Assembly: GCA_902796835.1 (NCBI GenBank)
Contig: CADBQP010000027.1
Location: 29,712 to 93,711, forward strand
Origin: an uncultured Bacteroidales bacterium
GTDB lineage: Bacteria > Bacteroidota > Bacteroidia > Bacteroidales > Bacteroidaceae
Direction of reading: 5' to 3'
Length of the DNA: 64,000 nucleotides
In this document: positions 1-30,733 of the stretch, piece by piece
Numbering within the stretch: the first letter of the stretch is position 1
How the letters are laid out: the number at the start of each line of letters is the position of its first letter
Notes under the pieces: model-generated
Databases searched by the model: none
The model's input: only the letters and a program-made list of their open reading frames with translations
Told to the model about the DNA's origin: nothing
Program-made: the position numbers and the translations under genes

Positions 1-255
1 AGCTTCCTGATCCGGGGTGCACAAGCACAGAACGCGGGTAACTTTACCCGTTCCGTGGGGAAGCGAAACTACGCCACGTACCATTTGGTTTGCCTTACGG
101 GGATCAACACCCAGACGGATGTCAATGTCCACCGAAGCATCAAATTTGGTAGTGGTGATTTCTTTCACCAATTGTGCGGCCTCTGTCAAGGTATAAGCTT
201 TCCCAGCTTCAAGCTTTCCAGCAACTGATTTCTGATTTTTTGTCAGTTTACTCAT
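1..255 (-). CDS. rplA: 50S ribosomal protein L1 (N-terminal part; runs off window)
   Basis: Minus strand reads [71 protein letters not shown]; follows rplK. Confidence 0.96.
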
Positions 256-286
256 TGTTTTCTGAAATTTTTGAAGTGTTTATAAT

Positions 287-724
287 TTAGCCTGGGAAAT
301 CTCCCTTCACAGTGATACCCATAGAACGTGCTGTGCCAGCAACTAGACGCATAGCTGACTCTATGGTGAAACAGTTCAAGTCGGGCATCTTGTCTTCTGC
401 AATGGCTCTAACCTGCTCCCAAGTTACGGAAGCTATCTTCTGACGGTTAGGCTGAGAAGAACCGCTCTTCTTTTTTGTTGCCTCAAGCAATTGTATTGCT
501 ACAGGAGGAGTTTTTACGATGAAGGTAAAAGATTTGTCGGTGTAGTAGGTAATTACTACGGGCAACACCTTACCGGCCTTCTCCTGAGTTCTGGCATTGA
601 ACTGCTTGCAGAAATCCATAATGTTGATACCCTTAGAACCCAAAGCAGGTCCTACGGGAGGCGATGGATTTGCAGCGCCACCTTTAATCTGTAATTTGAT
701 TAATCCAGCAACTTCTTTTGCCAT
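287..724 (-). CDS. rplK: 50S ribosomal protein L11
   Basis: [29 protein letters not shown]; start moved to the ATG at 724. Confidence 0.98.
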
Positions 725-812
725 TTCTTTATTTACTTTATTTTTTGTAATTAATACCGCACGACAAACCATGCGGCAGGCTAATATTAGAAAGAGTACA
801 GGCTACGTAACA

Positions 813-1337
813 CTACCCTTCCCTCTCTACTTGCATAAAACCAAGCGACAACGGTGTGTTTCGTCCGAAGACTTTCACCATTACCTTGAGCTTCTTCTTG
901 GCATTGTCTACATCTTCGACAACACCGCTGAATCCGCCGAAAGGTCCATCGGTCACCTTCACTTTGTCGCCCACATTGTAGGGGATGGTCATATCCAAGA
1001 TTTCTTCTTGCATTTCATCGACCTTACCCAACAGGCGGTTGATTTCGTGAGGCTGAGCTTCTCCTATGGTTCCTAACACGTTTGGCGTACTACGGAGCAA
1101 ATGCGCCGTTTCGCCAATCATTCTCGCTTCTACCAACACATATCCCGGCAGAAAATTACGCTCTTTGATAACTCGTTTAGAGCCACGCTGAGTGTAAACC
1201 TTCTCTGTCGGTATGAGCACCTGAGCAACGTTACCGTCGTAGAGGCCGTTTTGGATGCCTCCCTCAATGTACTCCTTAACCTTGGCTTCTTTTCCACTTA
1301 CGGCACGATACACGTACCATTTCATTTCTACAGCCAT
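813..1337 (-). CDS. nusG: Transcription termination/antitermination factor NusG
   Basis: KWYVYRAVSGKE, NFLPGYVLVE, C-terminal KOW motif VKVTDGPF; secE-nusG-rplK synteny. Confidence 0.96.
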   Translation of the reverse strand: MAVEMKWYVYRAVSGKEAKVKEYIEGGIQNGLYDGNVAQVLIPTEKVYTQRGSKRVIKERNFLPGYVLVEARMIGETAHLLRSTPNVLGTIGEAQPHEINRLLGKVDEMQEEILDMTIPYNVGDKVKVTDGPFGGFSGVVEDVDNAKKKLKVMVKVFGRNTPLSLGFMQVEREG

Positions 1338-1351
1338 TGCGTCACCAGAAT

Positions 1352-1543
1352 TTAAGAATGATAAATTAACTGCATAAGGAGCTCAAAGACCTTGTCGAGG
1401 CAAAAAACGATCACTGCAATGATGATGGAAGCAACTAAAACGACGATTGCAGTGTGCGTCAGAGCCCGACGAGTTGGCCATGTGGTTTTATGTGCCAATT
1501 CATCATAACATTCTTTGCAATATGTTACAAATTTCTTAAACAT
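1352..1543 (-). CDS. secE: Preprotein translocase subunit SecE
   Basis: 63 aa, ELAHKTTWPT followed by one TM helix; lies between tRNA-Trp and nusG. Confidence 0.93.
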   Translation of the reverse strand: MFKKFVTYCKECYDELAHKTTWPTRRALTHTAIVVLVASIIIAVIVFCLDKVFELLMQLIYHS

Positions 1544-1564
1544 CGTTTATCGTCTTGTTTTAAG

Positions 1565-1637
1565 CACGGGAAGAGAGGCTCGAACTCCCGACACCTGGTT
1601 TTGGAGACCAGTGCTCTACCAACTGAGCTATTCCCGT
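1565..1637 (-). tRNA. tRNA-Trp (CCA)
   Basis: ACGGGAA/TTCCCGT acceptor stem, anticodon loop CTCCAAA, GTTCGAG T-loop. Confidence 0.97.
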
Positions 1638-1723
1638 AGAAATAGGCTCACGTCTGTAAAGGCGCGAGCCCATTGGTTTGAAAAACCTCACGGCACTAAC
1701 TTACTGCCGCTGTAGTAGATGGT

Positions 1724-2905
<1,182 letters not shown>

Positions 2906-2968
2906 AGCTTTGAATTATATTTATATGAATGATTTCGTTTGGTTTCCGATTCTTCCGAATCACCTTAG

Positions 2969-3040
<72 letters not shown>

Positions 3041-3058
3041 ATTTTCGCTTTGCGATTG

Positions 3059-3131
3059 AGCGGAAGACGGGGCTCAAACCCGCGACCCCCAGCTTGGAAG
3101 GCTAGTGCTCTATCAACTGAGCTACTTCCGC
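3059..3131 (-). tRNA. tRNA-Gly (TCC)
   Basis: GCGGAAG/CTTCCGC acceptor stem, anticodon loop CTTCCAA. Confidence 0.96.
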
Positions 3132-3139
3132 AATGTGCG

Positions 3140-3222
3140 TGGGCAAAGATGGATTCGAACCACCGAAGGCGTAAGCCAGCAGATTTACAGTCTGCCCCAT
3201 TTGGCCACTCTGGTATTTGCCC
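3140..3222 (-). tRNA. tRNA-Tyr (GTA)
   Basis: GGGCAAA/TTTGCCC acceptor stem, anticodon loop CTGTAAA, long variable arm, 83 nt. Confidence 0.96.
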
Positions 3223-3270
3223 ATACTTGTTAACGGAGCAAATCACAGAGATACTACTCCGAAGCGGGTG

Positions 3271-3300
3271 CAAAGGTAGACATATTTTTTTACTCACAAA
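3271..3300 (-). promoter_or_regulatory. Bacteroidetes sigma-A promoter of the tRNA-tuf operon
   Basis: TTTG-N18-TACCTTTG on minus strand, ~50 nt upstream of tRNA-Tyr. Confidence 0.75.
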
Positions 3301-3441
3301 ATATTTTTCGATTTTTTTTTGATTATTCTTGCTTCTATTTTTAATCATGACCGATTTTTAACAACTATAGAAGGTTTTGGGCACGTTTTACGCTTTATAT
3401 ATAATTATGGTGTATGGCACAGAAAAGCTTCGAAGATACAT

Positions 3442-3609: not shown

Positions 3610-3685
3610 TATCTCCGAGATAATCCAAATTAGCTCGGAGATAATTTAAACTGTTGAGCCAACTCTTTAAACTGTCGAGCCAACT
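3610..3685. repeat. 21-bp-period intergenic repeat array, copy 1 (4 units)
   Basis: TATCTCCGAGATA-ATCCAAAT-TAGCTCGGAGATA-ATTTAAAC-TGTTGAGCCAACT-CTTTAAAC-TGTCGAGCCAACT. Confidence 0.85.
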
Positions 3686-3696
3686 ATGTGTAGATA

Positions 3697-4323
3697 TTAC
3701 TTTGGTAATTGGAAGAAGCGATAGAGATTACAGCCGACGAAATTGCCGAGAACAATGGAGAGATAATAAAAAGTAAGAGGTAGGAGGAAAGAGATTATCG
3801 TATCCATGGGTGTATTGAGCAGGTAGACGCAAGCATAAAAGGCGTCGGCGATACAGTGTGGAAAGCCACAAAGGATAAACGCTGGCACTGCAAAAAGAAG
3901 AGGCAACCAGTCTGAGAAATCTCTATTACGTCGCGCAAAATCTACGGCAAACGACATTAACAAGCCACATCCGATAGCGAGTAATCCTGTTCCGAGCCAT
4001 CCTATGCCTAATCGCGCCACAATTATACCTGTTGCCGCTTCGGGTAAGGCCAAAGGCGAGTAAAGGGATACGGCAGCTACAGCGAGCGTGCCAAGGATAT
4101 TACCGAGCAAAATGAGCAATAGCGGCAGGACATCCTTCCATCCGGTTATGAAGCCTGCTGTGCCAGTGTAGAGTTTAGCACGGTATTTAACTACGGCAAC
4201 TAAGCCGACGCAGAACAAGAACATGCCGAGGGCTGAATTGGCCAAAAACCCCCATCCAGCTACTGCGATGAGGATGCCAGAGAATAGCGATTGCGTTAAA
4301 ATTGGTAATTTTTGACTGGTCAT
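3697..4323 (-). CDS. Formate/nitrite transporter (FNT) family protein, short form
   Basis: 208 aa, ~6 hydrophobic helices; FNT-like motifs SGILI, LYTG, GNILG, CGLLM, GFPHCIAD; ATG at 4323 chosen. Confidence 0.75.
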   Translation of the reverse strand: MTSQKLPILTQSLFSGILIAVAGWGFLANSALGMFLFCVGLVAVVKYRAKLYTGTAGFITGWKDVLPLLLILLGNILGTLAVAAVSLYSPLALPEAATGIIVARLGIGWLGTGLLAIGCGLLMSFAVDFARRNRDFSDWLPLLFAVPAFILCGFPHCIADAFYACVYLLNTPMDTIISFLLPLTFYYLSIVLGNFVGCNLYRFFQLPK

Positions 4324-4420
4324 TGGTGATTGTTTGCAATTTCGTTTGATTTGACTCTTATTTTTTATTTCAAGCTGAAAGCATAGGGTAGTCGAAAGAA
4401 ATGAACTATTTGCATCTGGC

Positions 4421-5851
4421 TTATAGTGTATGAGAGGAGGAGCCATCGAAGCAATGAGTGCAGACATGATTGTGCGGCAATCCGATAGCACGTATAAGTG
4501 TTTCCAGTTTGGTGAAACGGAGTGAATGTAGTCCGAATTTCTCAGCGATACAATCCACCATTCGCTTATATTCTGGTGAATCGGTGATGGTATAGGCGTG
4601 TACTCGCTCTTCGTTCATCGCAGCTTCCTCGCCTTCTAATTCCGCAATGACGCGTCGGGTGATAAGTTCCATCACGGATTTTGATTCCGAGAAATTGATG
4701 AAGGGACATGCATAAACGAGTGGCGGACTAGCAATTCGCATGTGAATTTCTTTGGCTCCTCCCTCGAGCAGGCACCGTGTGTTGTCGCGCAACTGTGTTC
4801 CGCGCACAATAGAGTCATCACAAAGGAGTACACGACGATTCTGTATGATGGTGTTATTCTGTATGAGTTTCATCTTCGCCACCAGATTTCGCATATTCTG
4901 GCTCGAAGGCATAAAAGAACGAGCCCACGTCGTTGTATATTTAGTCACAGCTCGCCTATATGGCACGTTGTGGCCTTCAGAATATCCGATAGCCATGCCT
5001 ATGCCGGAGTCGGGCACACCGCAGCAGCAATCAACCTGCATATCATCTTCCTTTCCCATTTCGAAGCCTATATTATTGCGAACATCCTCCACATTACGAC
5101 CTTCGAAAACAGAGGTGGGAAAACCGTAGTACACCCATAAGAAAGAACAAATCTGCATGTGGTCGGGCAATGGTTCTGCCAGCTTTTCCATGCGATTGTC
5201 ATGCAACCGAACAATTTCGCCTGGTCCGAGGTTATGAACGAGGGTATAACCTAAGTTATAGAAAGCCGATGGCTCGCTTGCAGCACAGAAAGCACCTTCT
5301 TTTTGGCCAATGACGACCGGTGTACGTCCCCATAAGTCGCGCGCACACACCACTCCATTCTCTGTAAGCAGCATGAGGGACAGCGAACCTTTTATTTGCT
5401 CTTGCGCATAGCGAATACCTTCCTCGAGCGACGGTTTCTGAATAATCATCAATCCCACCAATTCCGTCGGGTTGACCTTTCCAGAAGAGAACTCGGAGAG
5501 GTGCATGTTGTGCTCAAGCGCTTGTTTCGCCAATTCTTCGAAATTGTTAATTTTACCTATGGTAATCAGTGCGAAGCGACCATGACGGGAATTGAACAAG
5601 AGGGGCTGCGCATCTGTATCGGAGATAATGCCTATTCCCGCATTACCGATAAACTTAGGCAGTTCTTCCTCCATTTTCGAACGGAACGAAGCCTTTGATA
5701 TAGAGTGTATTGAACGGTTGAAATGGCCTGTCGTCTCATCATATGTAGCCATTCCACCTCTGCGTGTACCCAGATGCGAAAGATAATCGGTACCATAGAA
5801 GACATCCGTCACACAAGGATATATACTGATAGCTCCAAAAAATCCAGCCAT
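4421..5851 (-). CDS. purF: Amidophosphoribosyltransferase-like protein lacking Cys1
   Basis: GVPDSG, PRPP loop DDSIVRGT, Fe-S cysteines (CSFLW, YACPF, CTHC); N-terminus MAGFFG. Confidence 0.88.
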   Translation of the reverse strand: MAGFFGAISIYPCVTDVFYGTDYLSHLGTRRGGMATYDETTGHFNRSIHSISKASFRSKMEEELPKFIGNAGIGIISDTDAQPLLFNSRHGRFALITIGKINNFEELAKQALEHNMHLSEFSSGKVNPTELVGLMIIQKPSLEEGIRYAQEQIKGSLSLMLLTENGVVCARDLWGRTPVVIGQKEGAFCAASEPSAFYNLGYTLVHNLGPGEIVRLHDNRMEKLAEPLPDHMQICSFLWVYYGFPTSVFEGRNVEDVRNNIGFEMGKEDDMQVDCCCGVPDSGIGMAIGYSEGHNVPYRRAVTKYTTTWARSFMPSSQNMRNLVAKMKLIQNNTIIQNRRVLLCDDSIVRGTQLRDNTRCLLEGGAKEIHMRIASPPLVYACPFINFSESKSVMELITRRVIAELEGEEAAMNEERVHAYTITDSPEYKRMVDCIAEKFGLHSLRFTKLETLIRAIGLPHNHVCTHCFDGSSSHTL

Positions 5852-5852
5852 A

Positions 5853-6818
5853 TTATTGATGTTTAACGGATGAATGATTAGTGAGGTAGGCGCAGATATT
5901 TGTTTCGATACGCTTGGCCAAGTCGGTCGTCTGCTCTTTAACGAACTTATCACCCGTTATACCTTCGTAGAGTTCGACATAGCGGTCAGTGATGGAGCCG
6001 ACAATCGCCTGAGTCATTTCCGGAACTTGCTGTCCGGCCTTGCCTTGGAAACCATTTTCCATGAGCCATTCGCGCACAAACTCCTTGGATAACTGACGTT
6101 GTGGCTTACCTGCTGCAAAACGCTCTGCGTAGTCTTCTGCATAGAAATAACGGCTGGAATCTGGTGTATGAACTTCATCCATGAGCATGACTTGGCCTTT
6201 ATAATTACCAAATTCATATTTAGTATCGACGAGCAAGAGTCCCTGTCTTTGTGCAATCTCCTGACCACGTTCAAAAAGCGCCAAGGCATATTTCTCCAAC
6301 AAGGCATATTCTTTCTCAGGCACCAGTCCACGCGCTATAATCTCTTCGCGAGATATATCCTCGTCGTGCGTTCCAATTTCTGCTTTGGTGGTTGGCGTGA
6401 TGATGGGTGTGGGGAATTTTTCGTTTTCTCTCATGCCTTCAGGCAGTTTCACACCACAGATTTCTCTGACACCAGCCTTGTAGGCACGCCAAGCGGAGCC
6501 ACACAAATAACCGCGAACAATCATCTCCACCGGATAGCCTTCGCAACGATAGCCTACCGAAACCATTGGATCGGGTGTGGCCAGCAGCCAGTTGGGCACT
6601 ATATCCCGTGTGGCATTGAGGAACTTGGCAGCTATCTGGTTGAGGATTTGTCCTTTGTAAGGAATTCCTTGTGGCAACACAACATCAAAAGCAGAGATGC
6701 GGTCGGTGGCCACTATGCATAGCAGGTCCTCCCCTATAAAATAGACATCACGCACCTTCCCGTGATACACATTGGTTTGTCCTGGAAATGAAAATTCGGT
6801 TGACGTTAAAGCATTCAT
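5853..6818 (-). CDS. purC: SAICAR synthetase (long Bacteroidetes type)
   Basis: [37 protein letters not shown]. Confidence 0.96.
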
Positions 6819-6848
6819 TTTTATTGCGTAAAAAAAAGGGTTTAGAAT

Positions 6849-9800
6849 TTATTTGTATTCACTCCATTCGCGGATGGCGAGCGAGTTGATAGGCACATCG
6901 AGGAAGGCATTAATAAAGGCTTCCGCCAATCGTGCATTAGTAATCAAGGGTATGTTGAGGTCCACAGCTGTTCGCCGCATGCGGTAATAGCTGTCGTGCA
7001 CAGAGTCTGCCAGCGTATCCACAGGGATTCCCACAAAAAGCTCAATCTCCTTATTATGCATCAAGTTTGAAACTATTGGTTGCTTCAGTCGGCCGTGCTC
7101 GTCTAAATGTTCGTTCTTGTAAACCCGTATGTTCGCCACTCCGAGGCCATTAAGGTAGTCGCTTGTTCCTCCGGTAGCATAGATGGTATATCCCCGATCC
7201 ACAAGTCGTTTAATTGTATCCAGCAAATGCGCCCTTTGTTTCGGTCCGCCAATAGCAAAGAGTATTTTTTTCTTTGGGATACGCATACCCACGGCCAACA
7301 TAGATTGTAGCAGCGCAGAGTTGGCATCTTCTCCCAGGCATCCCACCTCGCCTGTCGAAGCCATGTCCACACCTAGCACGGGGTCGGCATTTTGCAAGCG
7401 GTTGAATGAGAATTGCGATGCCTTCACACCCACATAGTCGAAATCGAAGAGCGACTTATTTGGCCTTTCGATAGGCAGGTCAAGCATGACACGTGTAGCA
7501 ATGTCGATAAAGTTGATTTTGAGTACCTTGCTCACAAACGGGAAGGAGCGCGAAGCTCGAAGGTTACACTCGATAACCTTAATTTCGTTCTCTCTTGCCA
7601 GATACTGAATGTTGAACGGACCGGATATGTTTAGTTCGCGAGCTATCTGACCCGAAATGCGCTTGATGCGGCGCACTGTCTCGACATACAGTCTCTGCGC
7701 TGGGAACATGATTGTTGCATCGCCAGAATGGACACCGGCATATTCCACATGCTCAGAGATGGCATAGGCTATAATTTCTCCGTTGCGAGCCACTGCATCC
7801 ATTTCCACTTCCTTGGTGTTGGTCATAAACTTTGAGATGACTACCGGATGTTCCTTTGAAACCTTGGCTGCCAACCGTAAGAACTTATGCAATTGCTCCT
7901 CGTTGGAACACACATTCATTGCTGCACCCGAAAGTACATAGGACGGACGAACAAGCACGGGATAACCCACACGCGCTACAAATTTCTCCATGTCTTCCTC
8001 AGAGGTCAGTGCGCTCCACTCGGGTTGATCCACGCCTATCCGGTCGAGCATGGCCGAGAATTTGTCGCGATCTTCCGCATTGTCTATTGATTTTGCCGAA
8101 GTGCCCAGGATTTTTACCTGCTGACCATCCAGCTTCATAGCCAAATTATTGGGTATCTGCCCTCCGGTCGAAACGATGACACCATGCGGATTTTCAAGCT
8201 CAATGATATCCATCACACGCTCAAACGTGAGCTCATCGAAATAGAGACGATCGCATGTGTCATAGTCCGTCGAAACCGTTTCTGGGTTAAAGTTTATCAT
8301 CACAGAGCGGTATCCGTTGTGACGAATGGTATTGAGTGCCTGCACTCCACACCAGTCAAACTCCACAGACGAACCAATACGATAGGCTCCAGAGCCCAAC
8401 ACGATAATCGACTTATGGTCGCCCGTATATTGAACGTCATTTTTTATGCCGCTATACGTGAGATATAGATAATTCGTTTGAGCAGGGAACTCTCCCGCCA
8501 ACGTGTCTATTTGTTTCACCACAGGCACTATGCCCATTCTCTTGCGCACTTGCCGCATGCGTAACACGGCCTGGTCCATTGTCATCGTTCGCCCCAGTCC
8601 CACAGCACGAGCAATCTGGAAGTCCGAAAATCCCAGTTGTTTGGCACGTAGCAGAAGGTCATATTCCAAGTGTTCCACACCATCCGTTCTTTTCAGTTCG
8701 GCATCGAGCTCGATAATATGCTCCAGGCGTTGCAAGAACCATCTATCAATCTTCGTCAGCTCGTGAATGCGGTCCACAGTGTAGCCCTCATACATGGCCT
8801 GCGCAATGGCAAAGATGCGTTTGTCGGTAGGTGCCTTCAGGGCTTCATCCAAATCATCCACGTGCAATTCTTTGTTCTCAGCAAATCCGTGCATGCCCTG
8901 TCCTATCATGCGCAAGCCCTTTTGAAGAGCATCCTCAAAGGTGCGGCCAATGGCCATCACCTCACCCACTGACTTCATGGAGCTGCCCAATTCGCGATTC
9001 ACACCGCGAAACTTGCCCAAGTCCCAACGCGGAATTTTGCAAACCACATAGTCCAACGCTGGTTCAAAAAAGGCCGACGTACTCTGCGTCACAGAGTTGG
9101 TCAGTTCAAATAGTCCGTAGCCTAAACCCAATTTAGTAGCCACAAAGGCCAGCGGATAGCCCGTAGCCTTCGACGCCAATGCCGAGGAACGACTCAGTCG
9201 CGCATTTACCTCGATTACGCGGTAGTCTTCCGACCCCGTGTCGAAAGCATACTGCACATTGCATTCACCCACAATACCCAAATGGCGGATGATGCGAATG
9301 GCCAGGGCACGTAGTTTGTGATATTCCGAATTGGTTAGCGTTTGTGAGGGTGCAATTACAATCGATTCGCCTGTATGAATGCCTAAGGGGTCAAAATTTT
9401 CCATGTTGCACACAGTGATGCAGTTGTCGTATCGGTCGCGCACCACCTCAAACTCAATTTCTTTCCAGCCCTTCAGCGATTTTTCCACCAACACTTGTGG
9501 TGAAAAAGAGAAGGCCTTCTCCACCATAGCGTCTAATTCTTGTTCGTTGTCGCAAAATCCAGAGCCCAGGCCACCCAGGGCATAAGCTGCACGAATAATA
9601 ACAGGATAGCCCAATTGTTTGGCAGCGTTTCGCGCATCCTCGACCGTTTCCACGGCCTCGCTCTTGATGGTCTTCACGCCTATCTTTTCCAGCTGACGCA
9701 CAAAGAGCTCACGGTCCTCAGTATTGATGATCGTCTCTACCGAAGTGCCCAGCACCCTTACGCCATACTTTTCCAACACTCCCCGGCGATACAATTCTAC

Positions 9801-10094
9801 GCCACAATTCAGTGCCGTCTGCCCGCCAAAGGCTAATAGAATACCGTCGGGCCGCTCCTTAGCAATGAGACGTTCCACAAACTCGGGCGTAACGGGCAAA
9901 AAGTAAATATGGTCAGCCATTCCTTCCGACGTTTGCACGGTGGCAATATTCGGATTTATCAGCACTGTTTCTATGCCCTCCTCGCGCAGGGCTTTAAGCG
10001 CTTGCGAACCCGAATAGTCAAACTCGCCAGCCTCGCCAATTTTCAGCGCACCCGAGCCAAGCACCAATACTTTGTTTATGTTTTCCAATCTCAT
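6849..10094 (-). CDS. carB: Carbamoyl-phosphate synthase large subunit
   Basis: GSGALKIGEAGEFDYSGSQA, duplicated ATP-grasp domains, C-terminal MGS domain; 1081 aa. Confidence 0.98.
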   Translation of the reverse strand: MRLENINKVLVLGSGALKIGEAGEFDYSGSQALKALREEGIETVLINPNIATVQTSEGMADHIYFLPVTPEFVERLIAKERPDGILLAFGGQTALNCGVELYRRGVLEKYGVRVLGTSVETIINTEDRELFVRQLEKIGVKTIKSEAVETVEDARNAAKQLGYPVIIRAAYALGGLGSGFCDNEQELDAMVEKAFSFSPQVLVEKSLKGWKEIEFEVVRDRYDNCITVCNMENFDPLGIHTGESIVIAPSQTLTNSEYHKLRALAIRIIRHLGIVGECNVQYAFDTGSEDYRVIEVNARLSRSSALASKATGYPLAFVATKLGLGYGLFELTNSVTQSTSAFFEPALDYVVCKIPRWDLGKFRGVNRELGSSMKSVGEVMAIGRTFEDALQKGLRMIGQGMHGFAENKELHVDDLDEALKAPTDKRIFAIAQAMYEGYTVDRIHELTKIDRWFLQRLEHIIELDAELKRTDGVEHLEYDLLLRAKQLGFSDFQIARAVGLGRTMTMDQAVLRMRQVRKRMGIVPVVKQIDTLAGEFPAQTNYLYLTYSGIKNDVQYTGDHKSIIVLGSGAYRIGSSVEFDWCGVQALNTIRHNGYRSVMINFNPETVSTDYDTCDRLYFDELTFERVMDIIELENPHGVIVSTGGQIPNNLAMKLDGQQVKILGTSAKSIDNAEDRDKFSAMLDRIGVDQPEWSALTSEEDMEKFVARVGYPVLVRPSYVLSGAAMNVCSNEEQLHKFLRLAAKVSKEHPVVISKFMTNTKEVEMDAVARNGEIIAYAISEHVEYAGVHSGDATIMFPAQRLYVETVRRIKRISGQIARELNISGPFNIQYLARENEIKVIECNLRASRSFPFVSKVLKINFIDIATRVMLDLPIERPNKSLFDFDYVGVKASQFSFNRLQNADPVLGVDMASTGEVGCLGEDANSALLQSMLAVGMRIPKKKILFAIGGPKQRAHLLDTIKRLVDRGYTIYATGGTSDYLNGLGVANIRVYKNEHLDEHGRLKQPIVSNLMHNKEIELFVGIPVDTLADSVHDSYYRMRRTAVDLNIPLITNARLAEAFINAFLDVPINSLAIREWSEYK

Positions 10095-10108
10095 GTGTAG
10101 TCAATAAT

Positions 10109-11182
10109 TTATTGATTAAGAAGCTTTACGAAATCATCAAACAGGAACTCCGTGTCCACTGGCCCCGAGCAAGCCTCGGGGTGGAACTGTACGGAAAACC
10201 AGGGTTTCGAAACGTGACGGATACCCTCATTAGAGCCGTCGTTCATGTTTTCGAAGAGAGGCATCCAGCCTTCAGGCAGTGTGTCCGCATCCAGAGCATA
10301 GCCATGGTTTTGCGAAGTAATGAAGCAACGATTCTCGCCCACCAAGCGCACGGGTTGATTGTGCGATCTGTGGCCGTATGGCAGTTTATAGATGGCAGCG
10401 CCAGCTGCTTTGCCCAGCAGCTGATTGCCCATGCATATACCAAAGATCGGTTTGCCCGTTTGCATATAGTTTCTGATATGGTGCACCAGTGGCATGCAGT
10501 TGTCGGGATTGCCCGGACCATTGGAGAGGAACAGACCATCGGCGTCGATCTGTCCAAATTCATAATCCCATGGCACACGCACTACCTCTAAACCCCTGTC
10601 TATAAGGCAGCGAATAATATTGTGTTTTACACCGCAGTCAACAAGCACTACCTTTTTGGCACCGCCCACATTATATCGCATAACCTCCTTGCACGACACT
10701 TGCGCCACGAAGTTCACATCCTCATAACGCGACTGCTCAGCATGCTCACACCCCTCTATCTCGATAGAACCCATCATCACGCCATGCTCACGCAGCAACA
10801 TCGCTAAAGCGCGGGTGTCAACACCAGTAATTCCAGGTATACCTTCGCGTTTAAGCCACTGCGCGAGTGATTCATGAGCATTCCAATGACTGAATTTTCC
10901 ACTGTATTCACAGCAAATGATGGCGCGTGCATAAATGCGTTCGGACTCCATGTAGGTTGCCAAACCATCTGAACGGAAAGTCAACTCAGGAACTCCATAG
11001 TTGCCTACCAGCGGAAAAGTAAGGGTCATCAACTGCCCTGCATAACTGGGGTCTGTGAGTGACTCGGGATAACCCACCATGGCCGTATTGAAGACCACCT
11101 CTCCGCTCACGGACACGTCTGCTCCGAAACTATAACCTTCAAAGGTCGTTCCGTCGCTTAGTCGCAACATTGCTTTTTTCAT
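10109..11182 (-). CDS. carA: Carbamoyl-phosphate synthase small subunit
   Basis: GEVVFNT, FGICMGNQ (catalytic Cys), QFHPE; ATG at 11182 overlaps the purA stop (alternative start 11191). Confidence 0.97.
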   Translation of the reverse strand: MKKAMLRLSDGTTFEGYSFGADVSVSGEVVFNTAMVGYPESLTDPSYAGQLMTLTFPLVGNYGVPELTFRSDGLATYMESERIYARAIICCEYSGKFSHWNAHESLAQWLKREGIPGITGVDTRALAMLLREHGVMMGSIEIEGCEHAEQSRYEDVNFVAQVSCKEVMRYNVGGAKKVVLVDCGVKHNIIRCLIDRGLEVVRVPWDYEFGQIDADGLFLSNGPGNPDNCMPLVHHIRNYMQTGKPIFGICMGNQLLGKAAGAAIYKLPYGHRSHNQPVRLVGENRCFITSQNHGYALDADTLPEGWMPLFENMNDGSNEGIRHVSKPWFSVQFHPEACSGPVDTEFLFDDFVKLLNQ

Positions 11183-12477
11183 TTTCTCCATATTGTTGCA
11201 TTGCGATCAGGCCCAACCGAAATAATTTTGATGGGTGTGGCCAATTCGCGTTCCAAAAAATTAACATAATTCACAAAAGCTTCTGGCAAATCTTCCTGTT
11301 TGTCACAATGCGTCAAATCGGTTTGCCAACCTGGCAGCTCTTGGTAAACAGGTTCTACATCCTTATCAATCGAGAATGGAAAATCATATATCTGTTCTCC
11401 TTTGATACGATAAGCGACACAGGCCTTGACAACTGGGAAAGTATCAAGCACGTCAGATTTCATCATAATCAGTTGGGTCACACCATTGAGCATAATCGTA
11501 TATCGAAGAGCCACAAGATCAATCCATCCACAGCGACGCTCACGTCCCGTGACTGCACCATATTCATGACCTATATCGCGCATTTTCTTACCCGTCTCGT
11601 CGAACAATTCTGTCGGGAAAGGTCCAGACCCCACACGGGTGCAGTAAGCCTTGAAAATCCCATAAACTTCGCCAATACGGCTTGGAGCTAAACCAAGGCC
11701 AGTACATGCCCCTGCACTTATTGTATTACTTGAAGTGACAAAAGGATATGAACCAAAATCAACATCCAACAGTGAACCTTGGGCGCCTTCGCAAAGAATG
11801 GTTCGGTTATCGGCTAACGCTTTATTGACATAATGCTCGCTATCAACGAAACGGAACTGACGCAGAAAATCAATGGCCAGCATCCATTCTTTCTCGAGAG
11901 CCTCCAGTCCGTCTAACGAAATAGTTGTTCCCCCTTTCGACACGGCCGATGCATTGAGCGAATTCATCATTTCTATATGCCGGTAACGCGCTTGAGCATA
12001 TTTCTCAGCGAAGTTTTCGAATATATCTCCTACGCGCAGGCCATTGCGACTGATTTTATCTGTGTATGTCGGGCCTATACCTTTTCCAGTGGTGCCAATC
12101 TTCGCCATTCCTTTGGCTACTTCGTTGGCTTGGTCCAGAAGACGATGGGTAGGAAGGATGAGTTGCGCTTTTTTAGAAATAATCAAACGTTCCTTTAAGT
12201 TGTGACCAGATTGAGCCAATTCCTCGGCTTCTTTTTGGAACAAAATAGGATCTAATACAACCCCATTTCCTATCAGATTCACTTTCCCGCCTTGAAATAT
12301 ACCGGAGGGGATACTACGAAGCACATATTTCTGACCTTCGAACTCGAGGGTATGGCCTGCATTTGGGCCTCCCTGAAAACGTGCTACAACATCGTACTTA
12401 GGGGTCAAGACATCGACCATTTTACCTTTGCCCTCGTCTCCCCACTGGAGTCCTAAAAGGATATCTGCTTTTTTCAT
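11179..12477 (-). CDS. purA: Adenylosuccinate synthetase
   Basis: GLQWGDEGKGK, GGPNAGHT, TGRERRCGW. Confidence 0.98.
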   Translation of the reverse strand: MKKADILLGLQWGDEGKGKMVDVLTPKYDVVARFQGGPNAGHTLEFEGQKYVLRSIPSGIFQGGKVNLIGNGVVLDPILFQKEAEELAQSGHNLKERLIISKKAQLILPTHRLLDQANEVAKGMAKIGTTGKGIGPTYTDKISRNGLRVGDIFENFAEKYAQARYRHIEMMNSLNASAVSKGGTTISLDGLEALEKEWMLAIDFLRQFRFVDSEHYVNKALADNRTILCEGAQGSLLDVDFGSYPFVTSSNTISAGACTGLGLAPSRIGEVYGIFKAYCTRVGSGPFPTELFDETGKKMRDIGHEYGAVTGRERRCGWIDLVALRYTIMLNGVTQLIMMKSDVLDTFPVVKACVAYRIKGEQIYDFPFSIDKDVEPVYQELPGWQTDLTHCDKQEDLPEAFVNYVNFLERELATPIKIISVGPDRNATIWRK

Positions 12478-13766
12478 ATTCCTAATTGATTAAATATATA
12501 ATCAACATTCTTCATATAATAATCGAGCGTGAAACAGTTATCTACCTCTTCAGAAGAAAGATATTGCATCACTTCGGGTGTGTCTTTGAGGAGTTCCTGC
12601 ATTTGGATTCTTTCCATCAGCGTGCGCATAGCTACTGGTTGAACAAGGTCATATGCCTGTTCGCGAACTAAACCTTTTTCTATGAGCGCATTCATTACAC
12701 GTTGGGCAAAAATGGCTCCGTATGTGAGTCCAATATTATGCAACATGTTCTCTGGATAAACCACCAGATTATCCAACACGTTCATCAGTCGAACCAGCAT
12801 ATAATCAAGCAATATGGTGGCATCGGGAAGCACGATTCTCTCAGTAGAGGAATGTGAAATGTCTCGTTCATGCCACAAAGCGATATTTTCTACAGAGGTA
12901 CACATGTATCCTCGCATCACACGAGCACAGCCACATATATTTTCAGAAGAAATTGGATTACGCTTATGCGGCATGGCAGACGACCCTTTTTGCCCCTTGC
13001 GGAAAGCCTCCTCCACTTCTCTAACTTCCTGACGTTGCATGTTACGAATCTCCATCGCAATCTGCTCCAAAGAACCTGCAATAACAGCCAAGGAAGATAA
13101 ATAAAAAGCATGACGGTCGCGTCCAAGCACCTGCGTGGCTATCTTGGCCGATTCGATGCCAAGATGCTCACAAACATATTGCTGGATGAAAGGAGGAATG
13201 TTTGCATAGTTTCCTACCGCTCCAGATAGTTTTCCGGCTTCTACGCCCGATGCTGCCATCTCGAATCGCTCCATGTTACGCTGCATCGCAGAAAACCATA
13301 ATGCCCACTTAAGTCCAAATGAAGTCACGTCAGCATGCATGCCATGCGTGCGACCAATGACAGGAGTGTATTTGAACTCATTGGCGCGCTTCTTCAAAAC
13401 GGTCGAAAATTTCTGCAAGTCGTCACGCAGAATGGTGTTGGCCTGTTTTAGCAGATACCCATTTGCTGTGTCTACCACATCGGTAGAAGTTAGTCCATAA
13501 TGCACCCACTTACGCTCCTCACCGAGCGACTCGCTGACTGTACGCGTAAAGGCCACCACATCATGGCGAGTGATTTCCTCAATCTCGTGTATGCGATCGA
13601 CATCGAAGGTGGCATTTGCACGCAATTTTGCAACATCTTCCTTGGGCACTACACCTAATTCTGACCAAGCCTCGGCAGCTAAAAGTTCTACCTCCAAATA
13701 GGCTTGAAACTTATTTTCCTCCGTCCATATTTTGCGCATTTCTGCGCGTGAATAGCGTTCTATCAT
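12474..13766 (-). CDS. purB: Adenylosuccinate lyase (430-aa Bacillus-like type)
   Basis: MIERYSRAEM, GSSAMPHKRNP, LWHERDISHSS. Confidence 0.97.
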   Translation of the reverse strand: MIERYSRAEMRKIWTEENKFQAYLEVELLAAEAWSELGVVPKEDVAKLRANATFDVDRIHEIEEITRHDVVAFTRTVSESLGEERKWVHYGLTSTDVVDTANGYLLKQANTILRDDLQKFSTVLKKRANEFKYTPVIGRTHGMHADVTSFGLKWALWFSAMQRNMERFEMAASGVEAGKLSGAVGNYANIPPFIQQYVCEHLGIESAKIATQVLGRDRHAFYLSSLAVIAGSLEQIAMEIRNMQRQEVREVEEAFRKGQKGSSAMPHKRNPISSENICGCARVMRGYMCTSVENIALWHERDISHSSTERIVLPDATILLDYMLVRLMNVLDNLVVYPENMLHNIGLTYGAIFAQRVMNALIEKGLVREQAYDLVQPVAMRTLMERIQMQELLKDTPEVMQYLSSEEVDNCFTLDYYMKNVDYIFNQLGI

Positions 13767-13767
13767 T

Positions 13768-14949
13768 TTATTTTACGTTATACGAAATGCAATTATACGC
13801 CTGCTCGGCTTTTTGTAGAGCCTTTTCTGTCGTTTCGTCCGAAGCGAGTATCACGCCATAGCGACGATGGCCATGCACGGCGGGCTTACCAAACAGTCGC
13901 AATTGTACACCGGGAATAGACAGGGCCTTATCCAAACCTTCAAATGTTACTTCCGCACCTTCACCCTCGATGACGATAGCCTTGCTGGCCGAGGGACTGA
14001 AAAAGCGCACTTCGGGAATGGGCAAACCTAAAATTGCACGCGCATGTAATGCAAATTCGCTCAGGTCCTGACTGATCATCGTAACCATGCCGGTGTCGTG
14101 CGGACGCGGGCTCACCTCTGAGAATATGACCTTGTCGCCCTGCACAAACATTTCCACTCCGAAAATGCCATAGCCACCCAGAGCATTGGTTACTGCACGA
14201 GCTATTTCCTGTGCCCGCTGCAGTGCTGCGGGCGTCATAGCCTGCGGCTGCCATGACTCGCGGTAATCGCCCTCCACCTGATGATGGCCAATGGGTTGCA
14301 GAAAGGTAGTACCACCAGCGTGGCGAATGGTGAGTAACGTAATCTCATAGTCGAAATGCACAAAGCCCTCGACGATGACACGACCGGCCCCTGCACGACC
14401 GCCTTCTTGCGAAATGGTCCATGCCTGTTCCACCTCGTCTGCAGTATGAATGGTGGATTGCCCGTGGCCTGAAGAGGACATGATAGGTTTTACTACGCAA
14501 GGTATTCCTATTTCCTCTATCGCGGCTATAAACTCGGCGTGATTGTCGGCAAACTTGTAGGGGGCAGTGGGTAGATTCAAATCCTCGGATGCCAGCCGAC
14601 GAATAGACTCGCGGTTCATAGTGAGAAAGGCTGCCCTCGCGGTGGGAATCACTCGATAGCCCTCCTTCTCAAGTTCAACCAGCGTTGGCGTGGCTATTGC
14701 CTCCACCTCGGGGATAATGAGCGTAGGGCGTTCTGCCTCTATGATTTCGCGCAAACGATTGCCGTCCAACATGTTAAACACATGCGAACGATGGGCCACC
14801 TGCATTGCGGGTGCATTCGCATATCTGTCGCAAGCAACGACTTCTACTCCATAGCGTTGGAGTTCGATGGCTACTTCTTTGCCCAGTTCGCCGCTACCCA
14901 GCAGCAGCGCCCGTGTGGCAACGGGTGTGAGTGGTGTTCCGATTTTCAT
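13768..14949 (-). CDS. purT: Formate-dependent GAR transformylase
   Basis: [37 protein letters not shown]. Confidence 0.96.
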
Positions 14950-14982
14950 TTTATTATATTTTTAGGGTGAAATTAATTTCTT

Positions 14983-15828
14983 CTATTTTAATCTGTTTTT
15001 ATAGCATTCTATCGTGTTCCGCATCAACATGGCTATGGTCATAGGTCCCACACCTCCAGGAACGGGCGTGATGGCGCCTGCCACAGGCAGTACGGATTTA
15101 AAATCAACATCACCTACGAGGGTACCCTGTGCGGTGCGGTTAATGCCCACGTCGATGACCGTGGCTCCGGGTTTGACCATCGACGCCGTTATAGTGTGCG
15201 CTCGCCCCACCGCTACTATCAGTATGTCTGCCTGGCGACAAACCTCTGCCAAATTGGCCGTGCGACTATGTGCCAGCGTCACAGTGCAATGTTGGTCGAG
15301 CAGTAGTTTGGCCATGGGCTTACCCACTATATTGCTACGACCCACCACCACCGCATGACGGCCAGCAAGGGCAATGCCTGTAGACTCGAGCAACGCCATG
15401 ATGCCAAGTGGAGTGCAAGGCACTATGGAGGCGCAATTAAGCCACAAGTTTGCCACATTGTATGGATGGAAACCATCCACATCCTTCTCGTGAGCAATGG
15501 CCGTAATGACGCTTTGCTCGTCGATATGAGAGGGCAAGGGCAGTTGCACCAATATGCCATCAACTTCCGCGTCAGCGTTGCAAGATTGTACTACGCGCAG
15601 CAGTTCCTTTTGCGAGACAGACGACGGCAAACGTATCAGTTCGCCATCAATGCCGCAATAGTCCGCTGCCTTGATTTTACTCTTTACGTAGGCCATACTG
15701 GCGGGATTCTCACCCACTATGATGACATCAAGACGCGGTTTGCGTTTATGTTGAACGCTGAGCAAGTCAACTTGTTTTCGCAATTCTTCCTTATAATGCT
15801 GCGCTATTTTTATTCCGTCTATTATCAT
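14983..15828 (-). CDS. folD: Methylene-THF dehydrogenase/cyclohydrolase
   Basis: EKDVDGFHP, PCTPLG, GRSNIVGKP, TPVPGGVGPMT; ATG overlaps the purD stop. Confidence 0.96.
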   Translation of the reverse strand: MIIDGIKIAQHYKEELRKQVDLLSVQHKRKPRLDVIIVGENPASMAYVKSKIKAADYCGIDGELIRLPSSVSQKELLRVVQSCNADAEVDGILVQLPLPSHIDEQSVITAIAHEKDVDGFHPYNVANLWLNCASIVPCTPLGIMALLESTGIALAGRHAVVVGRSNIVGKPMAKLLLDQHCTVTLAHSRTANLAEVCRQADILIVAVGRAHTITASMVKPGATVIDVGINRTAQGTLVGDVDFKSVLPVAGAITPVPGGVGPMTIAMLMRNTIECYKNRLK

Positions 15829-17075
15829 AATGCCCAATGTGCAATGTCTTTTCTGTAAAATAGATTGGAGCAACGTATCTTGCCTATCTCCGCATAAACC
15901 TTTTGCTGGGCAGAGGGGATGTCGTCAGCATAGGCTATGCACATGAGCACACGGCCACCATTAGTCAGCAATTTGCCTTGCTGAGCACGGGTTCCCATGT
16001 GAAACACCAAACCATCGAAATCATCCACATGATCTATTTCAGCTCCTTTGGCATAGGCGCCTGGATAACCACACGAAGCCATGACCACACCCACGGCTGC
16101 CCTGCTTAGCCACTGAATAGAGCTGAGCGGTGCGCCCGTGGCAATGGCATGAAATACGGCGTATGCATCCGTTTGCATGAGGGGCAAAACGATTTCGGTT
16201 TCGGGGTCGCCAAAACGAGCATTAAACTCTATGACTTTGATGCCTTGGTTTGTCTTTATCAGTCCTCCATAGAGCACTCCCGTCAGCGGAGCGCCCTCAG
16301 CCGCCATGGCTTCGGCAACAGGTTGCATAATGTGTGTCAGAGCCCATTCCCTCTCTTCGTCGCTGATGAAAGGTATGGGTGTGTAGGCACCCATGCCCCC
16401 GGTATTAGGGCCTTCGTCGTTGTCGAAAGCGCGCTTGTGGTCCTGGCTCAAGGGCATCGGGTAGACTCGGTCGTGATGCACAAAAGCCATGAACGAAAAC
16501 TCGGGGCCTTCGAGATAATCCTCTATGATTACCCTGCCCTTGCCAAAGGCTTCGCCCACCAACATCTCGTGCAAGGCCTGCCTGGCTTGCTGTTCATCAT
16601 GAGCTATGACTACTCCCTTGCCGGCGGCCAGCCCGTCGTATTTAAGCACGGTGGGATAACATCGCCGACTGCGCACATATTGCATGGCTTCGTCGTAGCG
16701 GTCAAAACTGCGATATTCGGCAGTGGGGATGCCGTGGCGTGCCATAAGCCGTTTGGCAAAATCCTTGCTCGCTTCAATCTGCGTGGCCTTCCTCGAGTGT
16801 CCAAACACGGGAATGTCGGCTTCGCGAAACGCATCGGCCACCCCAGCGGCCAGGGCCGCTTCGGGCCCCACCACACAGAGGTCGACCCGTTGGGACAGAG
16901 CGAACTGGAGTAATTGTCCGACTTCTGTTTCTGCTATGGGCACACATTCTGCCAACTGTTCAATGCCAGCATTGCCTGGCGCACAGAATATCTTCCCCAC
17001 TTGCGGACTGCGACTCAGTTGGTAAACAATTGCATGTTCTCGTCCTCCCGACCCTATGACTAATACTTTTTTCAT
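15825..17075 (-). CDS. purD: Phosphoribosylamine-glycine ligase
   Basis: MKKVLVIGSGGREHA, DGLAAGKGV, GPNTGGMG, EFNARFGDPE. Confidence 0.97.
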   Translation of the reverse strand: MKKVLVIGSGGREHAIVYQLSRSPQVGKIFCAPGNAGIEQLAECVPIAETEVGQLLQFALSQRVDLCVVGPEAALAAGVADAFREADIPVFGHSRKATQIEASKDFAKRLMARHGIPTAEYRSFDRYDEAMQYVRSRRCYPTVLKYDGLAAGKGVVIAHDEQQARQALHEMLVGEAFGKGRVIIEDYLEGPEFSFMAFVHHDRVYPMPLSQDHKRAFDNDEGPNTGGMGAYTPIPFISDEEREWALTHIMQPVAEAMAAEGAPLTGVLYGGLIKTNQGIKVIEFNARFGDPETEIVLPLMQTDAYAVFHAIATGAPLSSIQWLSRAAVGVVMASCGYPGAYAKGAEIDHVDDFDGLVFHMGTRAQQGKLLTNGGRVLMCIAYADDIPSAQQKVYAEIGKIRCSNLFYRKDIAHWAL

Positions 17076-17076
17076 T

Positions 17077-18639
17077 TTAGTGTTTGAAATGACGTATGCC
17101 CGTGAAGAGCATAGCGATGTGATTTTTGTTGGCTGCCTCAATGCTATCATTGTCGCGGATACTGCCGCCGGGTTGAACTATTGCGGCAATGCCATATTCT
17201 GCGGCATTCTCAACGCTGTCGGCGAAGGGGAAGAATCCGTCTGAAGCCATCACCAGTCCGGAATGTTTGATATCCGCCCCTTCCATAGCAAGTGCCCGCT
17301 GCGCCTGGTGTAGAGCTATAGCTGCCGAACCGACGCGATTCATCTGACCAGCACCCACGCCATAGGTTCGGCCATTTTTGACTACTACTATTGCATTGGA
17401 TTTGACATGCTTCACAATGCGCCATCCAAACTGCAGGTCATCCATCTGTTCCTGTGTCGGTTTGTTATCCGTAACACACATTTCTGCTGTAAGGCGACTT
17501 GTTTCTGTATCCAACTGCTGTGCCAGCATGCCGCCATTGACCGACACGTATTGCATCTGTTCCGTGGCTTCGGCATTCATATCTACTTCCAACAAACGCA
17601 GGTTCTTCTTAGTTCTTAACACCTCCAAAGCTTCTGGTTCAAAAGATGGAGCCATGATGATCTCGAGGAATACGGGATGCATAAGTTCTGCCATTTCTTT
17701 GGTGACCACACAGTTGGTGGCCACAATTCCACCAAAGATTGACACCTTGTCCGCATCATAGGCTTTGGTCCACACATCTACTCCATCCTTGCCGATGGCA
17801 GCCCCACAAGGATTCATGTGCTTTAGCCCCACGCAAAACGGCGTTTCTCCGAACTCACGTACAATATTCAGAGCAGCATTGGCATCTTGGATATTGTTGT
17901 ACGACAACTCTTTGCCATGCAACTGACGGGCCGAAGCTATGGAATAAGGTACGGACTTCGTGGCTGAATAGAACATGGCGTGCTGATGAGGGTTCTCGCC
18001 ATAACGCAGGCTCTGCTTCAGATTGTATTCCAAAAATAGTTTTTGGGGTAGCCCAGCAGCCTTGCGCATATATGTGGCGATACACATATCGTATTCCGCG
18101 GTGTGAGTATATGCCTTTGCACTCAGTTCGAGTCGTGTCTGCTTGCTGGTATTGCCTGCGGCCTGTATCTGAGCAAGCACTTGCCCGTAGTCAGCGGGAT
18201 CGCACACCACCGTCACATCTTTCCAATTCTTGGCTGCAGAGCGCAACATTGACGGTCCTCCGATATCAATATTCTCTATTGCATCGGCCATCGTTGTTCC
18301 TTCCTGCGAAATAGTTCGTTGAAAGGGATATAGATTTACACATACAAGGTCTATAAGCCCAATGCCGTTTTGTTGTAAAGCTTCCATGTGCGACGATTCG
18401 TCGCGACGAGCCAACAAGGCACCATGTACTTTTGGGTGTAGCGTCTTAACACGGCCATCGCAGATCTCAGGGAACCCTGTTACTTCGCTAATTCCAATGG
18501 TTTTTACACCATTTTCTTCCAGTAACCTCTGCGTTCCACCTGTGGCGATGATTTGCCAACCTGCCGCCTGCAGGCCACGCACAAAATCCACCAAACCCGA
18601 CTTATTGCTAACGCTTACTAATGCTCTTTTTTGTGCCAT
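17077..18639 (-). CDS. purH: Bifunctional AICAR transformylase/IMP cyclohydrolase
   Basis: RALVSVSNK, GRVKTLHP, LRYGENPHQ, ASDGFFPF, IRHFKH. Confidence 0.97.
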   Translation of the reverse strand: MAQKRALVSVSNKSGLVDFVRGLQAAGWQIIATGGTQRLLEENGVKTIGISEVTGFPEICDGRVKTLHPKVHGALLARRDESSHMEALQQNGIGLIDLVCVNLYPFQRTISQEGTTMADAIENIDIGGPSMLRSAAKNWKDVTVVCDPADYGQVLAQIQAAGNTSKQTRLELSAKAYTHTAEYDMCIATYMRKAAGLPQKLFLEYNLKQSLRYGENPHQHAMFYSATKSVPYSIASARQLHGKELSYNNIQDANAALNIVREFGETPFCVGLKHMNPCGAAIGKDGVDVWTKAYDADKVSIFGGIVATNCVVTKEMAELMHPVFLEIIMAPSFEPEALEVLRTKKNLRLLEVDMNAEATEQMQYVSVNGGMLAQQLDTETSRLTAEMCVTDNKPTQEQMDDLQFGWRIVKHVKSNAIVVVKNGRTYGVGAGQMNRVGSAAIALHQAQRALAMEGADIKHSGLVMASDGFFPFADSVENAAEYGIAAIVQPGGSIRDNDSIEAANKNHIAMLFTGIRHFKH

Positions 18640-18658
18640 AATTTCAAAAACTCTGTCT

Positions 18659-19693: not shown

Positions 19694-19704
19694 GAATAAA
19701 GATT

Positions 19705-22700: not shown

Positions 22701-23427
22701 CGATATCGGACTTTATGAACGAATCTTCTACCTCGATTTGCTCTAAAATTGTGGTGAAGGTGGTGTGACGACAATGGTCTGACCAATACGTATCGAGAAT
22801 GCGAAGTTCGGTTTCGGTGGGGTCGCGACGCTCTTGACGGAAATAATCTGCCACACACTTCAAGTCGTCGGCATTCATTGCCAATCCCCATTGCTGGCAG
22901 AAGGCTTCATATTCCTCGGGCGGCATTGAGGTGAAACCATGCAGCGACGCTAAGGGCTTCGCTTCGGCCGCTGGCTGACGCTCCAGGAGCTGAAGGTTCT
23001 TTTCTCTCGATTCGACCGAGTTGATGTAGTAATGACGAATGCGCTCGAGCTCGTCCGCCGTCATCTCGTCCTCGAAAATCAGCAAACGACTGGAACGGAT
23101 GTCTATGTCCGCATTCGGGTCGATGAGATGCACGCAATCGATAGCCGACGAAGCGCGTTGGTCGAACTGACCGGGAATGTATTCGACAGCCAGATAATTC
23201 TTGTCCTTCAAATCCATTCTGTCGTACACGACGTCGGTTACCGTTTCGCCAAACACGCCATACTTGCTCTTCGCTAACAACTCCTCGCTAAAGCCAAAGA
23301 GGTCGTACACACACAGATAGCGCATCTTGCTTATGTGCATCTGCAAATTCTCATTCAATTCCTGGCGCAAGCTCTCGGCTTCGACACGGAAACCTTCTTT
23401 CTTTTCGACAAATAGCCTTATATCCAT
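19705..23427 (-). CDS. purL: FGAM synthase, single-chain large type with fused glutaminase
   Basis: [43 protein letters not shown]; 1240 aa. Confidence 0.97.
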
Positions 23428-23896: not shown

Positions 23897-23897
23897 G

Positions 23898-30679: not shown

Positions 30680-30733
30680 ATCGATTTCTCACGTTTATAC
30701 TTCCGTTAGGGAAGCAGTATCAAAAATCACCTG

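Follow-up and report, generated by a model that had tools for sequence, protein, structure and literature searches.

Known members of the formate/nitrite transporter (FNT) family of channels (TC 1.A.16) serve fermentation (FocA), nitrite reduction (NirC), sulfite reduction (the hydrosulfide channel, HSC) and formate respiration (FdhC). FdhC, NirC and HSC (FNT3) are each encoded beside an enzyme that uses or makes their substrate, and FocA is encoded in the focA-pflB operon of E. coli, Salmonella and Vibrio. A formate-supplying function is also coupled to formate-dependent purine formylation in two described systems. In E. coli, PurT is supplied with formate by PurU or pyruvate formate-lyase (PFL). 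In Thermococci, fdhA adjoins pur genes, so that the coupling is visible in the gene neighbourhood as well (PMC10025317). Both rely on formate produced within the cell. Here we describe a locus with PurT in which no such enzyme was found in the genome and a gene for a short FNT-family channel stands in the purine operon instead. It lies in a 64,000-nucleotide (nt) stretch, hereafter the window, of an uncultured, rumen-type Bacteroidales bacterium of the Bacteroidaceae (assembly GCA_902796835.1, contig CADBQP010000027.1, positions 29,712-93,711 of the forward strand). Formate uptake through this channel, feeding PurT, is the best explanation for the group of related operons to which the locus belongs (clade A); we give it a probability of roughly 45%. 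We favour it because of the operon membership of the gene, a metabolic gap that only the FNT gene plausibly fills, and a pore resembling those of formate, nitrite and hydrosulfide channels.

A nucleotide-synthesis operon that ends in an FNT gene

Pfam and NCBIfam profile scans of the window identified 20 genes in an unbroken run on the minus strand, which opens with pyrK (30336) and closes with the FNT gene (3697); neighbouring genes overlap or lie a short distance apart. Their order is pyrK-pyrD-pyrF-pyrB-guaB-guaA-purE-purL-purM-purH-purD-folD-purT-purB-purA-carA-carB-purC-purF-FNT. An earlier interpretation made from the letters alone (the sequence-only reading) had rightly placed the FNT gene last but understated the extent of the run. 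The features most relevant to the channel are as follows.

FNT gene, 3697-4323 (-), short FNT-family channel of 208 amino acids (aa), PF01226
purF-FNT gap, 4324-4420 (-), 97 nt
PurF-like gene, 4421-5851 (-), non-canonical amidophosphoribosyltransferase
purC, 5853-6818 (-), PF01259
carB, 6849-10094 (-), one copy in the genome
carA, 10109-11191 (-)
purT, 13768-14949 (-), formate- and ATP-dependent glycinamide ribonucleotide (GAR) transformylase
folD, 14983-15873 (-), PF02882 and PF00763

The genome (2.02 Mb, 68 contigs, 94.4% complete) was searched for enzymes of formate metabolism. PurT is clearly assigned, with 619.8 bits against NF006766 (cut-off 339) and 586 bits against TIGR01142 (cut-off 502). 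It had been proposed as the only GAR transformylase of the run, with FolD also present, and both statements held: PurN is absent from the window, and folD is part of the run, a second copy with 45% identity residing on contig C21. Because Fmt is the only formyltransferase-fold gene (the single Formyl_trans_N match), PurN and PurU are both missing from the genome as assembled. The same searches found no formate-tetrahydrofolate ligase, PFL, NrfA, siroheme nitrite/sulfite reductase (NIR_SIR) or molybdopterin oxidoreductase, and the lack of any molybdopterin enzyme means that there is no formate dehydrogenase. Thus, PurT is the only recognisable user of formate, and no source of formate is recognisable. 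Peptide deformylase and GTP cyclohydrolases are minor sources of formate in bacteria; by our own estimate their output would fall far below the need of purine synthesis. The genome contains a single FNT gene, and the partners of FdhC, NirC and HSC (FdhAB, NirBD or NrfA, and AsrABC, respectively) were not found in it. The missing NrfA and NIR_SIR in particular favour a link between formate and PurT, which would be the partner here.

The prediction that the last gene encodes an FNT-family channel was borne out by a PF01226 score of 60.1 bits (gathering score 34.6). The scores against TIGR00790 (34.9 bits, cut-off 232.3) and the FocA equivalog TIGR04060 (25.4 bits, cut-off 290.1) stay far below their cut-offs. 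The true start of the gene is almost certainly ATG 4323, because the resulting 208 aa fit the lengths of the homologues and the alternative 264-aa open reading frame (ORF) from GTG 4491, which we rejected, would overlap purF. A profile built from 61 homologues matches 14 solved FNTs with E-values from 7e-14 to 9e-20; for the FocA, HSC, NirC, PfFNT and LCIA chains among them the values run from 1e-14 to 9e-20. The AlphaFold2 model (predicted local distance difference test, pLDDT, 95.7; predicted template modelling score, pTM, 0.91) has the six-helix aquaporin-like fold with broken transmembrane helices (TM) 2 and 5, and Foldseek matches it to HSC, PfFNT, FocA and NirC with a probability of 1.00 and a query-normalised score (TMq) of 0.74-0.82. 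The protein is about 70 residues shorter than FocA. Its loops are shorter, TM1 begins only 7 residues after the protein start, and the FocA-type N-terminal cytoplasmic helix is missing. Relatives of this short form are abundant, with more than 4,000 at an E-value of 0.001 or better among clusters at 90% identity and 437 below 1e-10 among clusters at 50% identity, and their length is nearly always 190-220 aa. A literature search returned no paper that describes a short Bacteroidales FNT or ties an FNT to a purine operon. The best explanation takes the 208-aa product to be functional and to belong to a compact (~200 aa) FNT branch, and what is new is the placement of this branch in a biosynthetic operon.

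The pore of the compact branch

Pore residues were mapped by a hidden Markov model alignment to Vibrio FocA (3KLY) and compared using a published residue scheme (PMC5525234). Six positions are invariant in the alignment of 61 sequences. These are Thr53 (codon 4167-4165), which corresponds to the Omega-loop threonine (T91), His156 (codon 3858-3856), which corresponds to the S-loop histidine (H209), Asn75 and Asn194, the invariant asparagines of TM3 and TM6, and Phe37 and Phe149. The central ring F37/F149/H156/A159 reads FFHA, which is the signature of FocA, FdhC, NirC-beta/gamma and HSC (PMC5525234). The cytoplasmic slit L41/L51/T53/M123 reads LLTM. TM4 carries Gly120 at the Asn-172 position and Met123 at the Val-175 position, both of which are YfdC-beta-like (PMC5525234). 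Across the eight FNT subgroups of that scheme, the centre is FFHA, FFHV or YIHV, the slit is LLTV, FLTV, FLTI or FLTM, and position 172 is Asn or Gly. In this comparison of signatures, the hybrid of an FFHA centre, an LLTM slit and Gly172 corresponds to none of the eight. Neither Bacteroidetes nor a short FNT form is mentioned in PMC5525234.

Overall, the window protein shares with FocA the FNT fold, the Omega-loop threonine, the S-loop histidine, the FFHA constriction and the Leu-Leu-Thr of the slit, and differs from it by Gly for N172, Met for V175, Pro for E208 and Asp for N213. Its likeness to FdhC, NirC and HSC likewise extends to the fold and the pore ring. The similarity to YfdC-beta is confined to the two TM4 positions; YfdC has the rings YIHV and FLHL with Phe79, whereas the window protein has FFHA and Leu in about 200 aa. 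The gene context and the proposed role also set the protein apart from FocA, because the gene is not beside pflB, the genome lacks PFL, and anabolic uptake would take the place of export of a fermentation product. The motif GFPHCIAD, singled out by the sequence-only reading as a variant, is indeed present (residues 153-160, window 3867-3844) but is a trait of the whole subfamily and not a local oddity. Within the branch, position 155 is variable, Asp160 is conserved almost without exception, and GFEH(S/C)VAN reappears in the most distant members.

Linkage, co-occurrence and competing explanations

The FNT gene occupies the same operon-terminal position in 15 related rumen genomes (59-79% identity), which we refer to as clade A. 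Close relatives from metagenomes and metagenome-assembled genomes (59-81% identity) were sampled from the guts of buffalo, yak, deer, sheep and reindeer and bear the labels Paludibacteraceae or Bacteroidales. Every one of them has purA-carA-carB-purC-purF-(aspC)-FNT, followed by differing downstream DNA. In most of them the region that corresponds to the purF-FNT gap is occupied by an aspartate aminotransferase gene (aspC), the nearest homologue of which in the window's genome lies on contig C3 (46% identity). In the clade-A loci measured, the FNT start overlaps the upstream gene or lies at most 50 nt from it; for example, it overlaps aspC by 4 nt in locus L045 and is separated from purF by -1 to 9 nt in L047 and L058, which lack aspC. 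Five clade-A genomes were searched for formyltransferases and PFL. Only Fmt-type formyltransferases were found (one genome has an extra 269-aa ORF); PurN and PFL were not.

A second clade, with 52-54% identity, has the arrangement gltBD-dapF-dapL-carA-carB-(canonical purF)-FNT, with variants in which the FNT gene directly follows carB or lies upstream of another carAB. No PFL was found in the genomes of this clade. Their PurT proteins mostly score 580-585 bits with TIGR01142 (G026, G499-G509), as compared with about 585 bits for the window and 480-527 bits elsewhere in the family. It may be that this subtype of PurT travels with the short FNT. Beyond the two linked clades, the FNT gene has varied neighbours (MsrA, DUF3737, an HD protein, SDR, a methyltransferase, a sulfatase, a TPR protein and a Gate-domain protein), and the search for recurrent ones was negative, since none recurs beyond a single genus. 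The Gate-domain neighbour (nucleoside-recognition domain PF07670; 8676-9965 of locus L031, genome G063) is upstream of the short FNT gene on the same strand, with a gap of 17 nt. In the protein tree, the operon-linked clade has an SH-aLRT support of 100 and a long stem, and its sister group consists of unlinked sequences. A single clade of all linked sequences is not rejected by the approximately unbiased (AU) test (p = 0.29), and we therefore dropped the claim that the two linked clades originated independently.

Separate transcription of the FNT gene and the lack of linkage to purT in other genomes had both been named beforehand as outcomes that would count against the role in purine synthesis. 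With regard to the former, the 97-nt gap contains no match to the Bacteroidetes promoter consensus TTTG..TAnnTTTG and no terminator-like site, and on these grounds we rejected the presence of either element there. A sigma-70 scan gave sites no more numerous than in shuffled sequence. Co-transcription is something that we infer. As to linkage, it holds throughout clade A, whereas most homologues are unlinked and the second clade is found at carAB/purF. A riboswitch link, for instance through ZTP, was rejected, as an Rfam scan of the window and nine unlinked FNT loci returned only tRNAs.

Co-occurrence was assessed in 100 genomes from the window's family, searched for the short FNT, PurT, PurN/PurU and PFL. 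The short FNT is present in 17 of them, all from four genera. It was found in 7/11 genomes with PurT and without PurN, PurU or PFL, in 3/22 PurT-only genomes with PFL, and in 7 of about 67 genomes with PurN. In this sample 13 of the 17 FNT-positive genomes lack PFL, but the anticorrelation with PFL was rejected as a general rule: 33 of 147 other genomes of the window's genus carry a short FNT (44-53% identity), and PFL is present in 29 of these 33. The family sample thus fits the expected association of the FNT with purT, but the pattern does not hold generally. Genomes with PFL and genomes without it would both be served by a formate channel that works in two directions, and the co-occurrence counts therefore do not decide. 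An order-wide sample (250 genomes from 148 families) contained the short type in only two others, too few for statistics. Within the genus as a whole, PFL is carried by 116 of the 147 other genomes, and most genomes that are at least 90% complete measure 2.2-3.0 Mb, as compared with 2.0 Mb for the window's genome. The small genome and the missing PFL suggest a reduced, more dependent lifestyle.

If formate uptake is the function, the FNT gene would be transcribed as the final gene of the pyrimidine/guanine/purine operon, and the channel would admit gut or rumen formate made by neighbouring microbes. Entry would probably follow the route of other FNTs, in which formic acid moves down the pH gradient. 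From there, PurT would add purine C8 from formate and ATP, and PurH would still add C2 from 10-formyl-tetrahydrofolate made by FolD. By analogy, further genes for precursor supply in the operon (folD, carAB and, in relatives, aspC) would favour a supply role for the FNT. A formate uptake or retention channel for purine C8, as put forward by the sequence-only reading, is thus supported by the operon-terminal position in 15 genomes, the sole FNT gene and the PurT-only genome. Its substrate and the direction of transport are inferred.

Several observations weigh against this explanation. The selectivity of an FNT channel cannot, to our knowledge, be read from its sequence, and the YfdC-like Gly120 and Met123 of TM4, as well as the replacement of FocA Glu208 and Asn213, are departures from the FocA pattern. 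The 97 nt that precede the window's FNT gene correspond to an overlap or a short gap in the relatives. The second clade adjoins carAB/purF and not purT, and its genomes have PurN, PurU and PurT (10/11). Linkage to pur genes is absent from 15/15 loci of the family sample and about 45/80 loci of the genome collection, and these loci have no nucleotide genes close by. Since related genomes cannot be counted as independent, the co-occurrence counts overstate the association. The FNT gene is missing from four PurT-only genomes without PFL, two of them being less than 75% complete, and the frequent PFL in FNT-positive genomes of the window's own genus makes the PFL-negative pattern lineage-specific. 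Finally, the genome itself is only 94% complete.

The best of the competing explanations, which we nevertheless regard as unlikely, ties the gene to carbamoyl-phosphate synthetase. The protein would be a general channel for small anions or weak acids that brings in bicarbonate for CarB (and PurK) or lets fermentation acid out. Indeed, carAB is common to all three linked arrangements, carA-carB-purC-purF-(aspC)-FNT, carA-carB-(purF)-FNT and FNT-carA-carB, but the near identity of the clade B/C sequences reduces these to few independent events. LCIA, an FNT-family protein deposited as low-CO2-inducible, is among the profile matches. However, gut habitats are rich in CO2, which passes freely through membranes, so that a bicarbonate channel would be of little benefit, and the FFHA ring belongs to channels for formate, nitrite and HS-. 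Acid export would fit the short FNTs that accompany PFL in the window's genus, whereas the window's genome has no PFL and hence no formate to export.

Rather less credit is due to the absence of any functional link, in which case the gene would be a passenger fixed at the 3' terminus of an operon that spreads horizontally, with a housekeeping role outside nucleotide metabolism. Most homologues do occur in unrelated, variable contexts, and as a single origin of the linked clades is not rejected (AU p = 0.29), the linkage may be one historical accident carried along with the operon. On the other hand, the FNT gene is kept in 15/15 clade-A genomes while aspC is present in some and absent from others and the DNA beyond the operon varies, and it overlaps its upstream gene or follows within 50 nt in the loci measured. 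It also adjoins two non-orthologous types of purF and occurs in two orientations relative to carAB.

A channel that clears cyanate or carbamate, as breakdown products of carbamoyl phosphate, from the cell is very improbable. The recurrent adjacency to carAB is the only contextual point for it, together with our reasoning that cyanate is chemically like formate and nitrite, whereas the surroundings of the FNT gene showed no cyanase context and the literature search yielded no precedent. Moreover, with a pH gradient that is alkaline inside, export would not be favoured if the acid form is the one transported. A NirC-like nitrite or HSC-like hydrosulfide channel, for which the fold and the FFHA ring common to NirC-beta/gamma and HSC would speak, is scarcely credible, as the genome yielded no NrfA, siroheme nitrite/sulfite reductase or molybdopterin enzyme and no nir or asr neighbours occur in any locus examined.

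Origin of the operon and significance of the channel

The remaining genes of the run and the gene upstream of it are listed below.

purA, 11179-12477 (-)
purB, 12474-13766 (-)
purD, 15825-17150 (-)
purH, 17077-18639 (-)
purM, 18659-19693 (-)
purL, 19705-23427 (-)
purE, 23429-23941 (-)
guaA, 23898-25424 (-)
guaB, 25436-26899 (-)
pyrB, 26918-27973 (-)
pyrF, 28003-28698 (-)
pyrD, 28691-29626 (-)
pyrK, 29605-30336 (-)
glnA, 30819-33017 (-), type III glutamine synthetase upstream of the operon, PF12437, PF00120 and PF18318

Apart from folD, each gene of the operon occurs only once in the genome, and the run appears to have a history different from that of its surroundings. At the DNA level, window positions 3812-33073 match genomes of the operon-linked clade (G494-G496). 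The region of about 4420-19900 is collinear with these genomes (73-76% nt identity); two more stretches, the FNT gene and 30401-33073, match the same contigs of the clade at 71-77%. The type III glutamine synthetase gene shows 75-77% nt identity to G494-G496 and has no match in the genus. By contrast, both flanks, 1-3322 on one side and everything beyond about 35478 on the other, find their best matches among genomes of the same genus, at 72-83%. These same-genus genomes give only scattered matches to the operon block, on different contigs, and their pur and pyr genes are scattered. The identity of carB is 74-76% to same-genus genomes versus 89-91% to the operon-linked clade, and Fmt, encoded on another contig, has the opposite pattern (60-70% versus 58-59%). 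The simplest reading of these sequence comparisons is that a nucleotide-synthesis block of ~29 kb, FNT gene included, was acquired horizontally and that the native scattered genes were lost. There is a residual chance that the contig is chimeric instead, although this would need two junctions.

The block has several further peculiarities. Just past the FNT stop codon, at 3644-3685, a 21-nt unit seen by eye occurs twice in tandem on the minus strand, AGTTGGCTC[G/A]ACAGTTTAAA[G/T]. It adjoins the edge of the block common with the foreign lineage and could represent either a scar left at the junction or a site where a protein binds. Further downstream are a Bacteroidetes-type promoter (3271-3300), tRNA-Tyr, tRNA-Gly, tRNA-Thr and tuf. 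At the other end, a 480-nt leader separates pyrK from the glutamine synthetase gene. Within this leader, in the stretch 30337-30680, a short ORF lies upstream of pyrK and downstream of a promoter-like TAACTTTG motif (about 30745-30738). Read by eye, the ORF opens with MRLFGQIRKPAPVDLHVHIR, which is similar to the metal-binding start of dihydroorotase. This ORF may be a remnant of pyrC; the operon holds no intact pyrC or pyrE.

The PurF-like gene is the sole purF-like gene in the genome. Its product scores 186 bits with TIGR01134, below the cut-off of 350 for the PurF equivalog. Glutamine phosphoribosyl pyrophosphate amidotransferases have a cysteine nucleophile at the N-terminus, whereas here the N-terminus reads MAGFFG, without Cys1, and Ala (or Gly) is kept at this position in relatives. 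Ammonia may serve the protein as a direct substrate; alternatively, it may not be a genuine PurF.

Taken at its widest, the proposal is tentative: the short FNTs may form a new class of anabolic formate-uptake channels, and the operon may be a mobile, near-self-contained module that replaced scattered host genes, making purine synthesis depend on formate from other rumen microbes. If so, a cross-feeding dependency at the level of carbon would be encoded in an operon. Formate is a main interspecies electron carrier in the rumen and would also be an anabolic nutrient that is cross-fed there. The same channel would explain the source of purine C8 in many gut Bacteroidales that have PurT and lack PurN, PurU and PFL. 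Assignment of a substrate to the short branch would annotate many genes at once, and the supply of a biosynthetic enzyme by a dedicated channel would add a new role to the known physiology of the FNT family.

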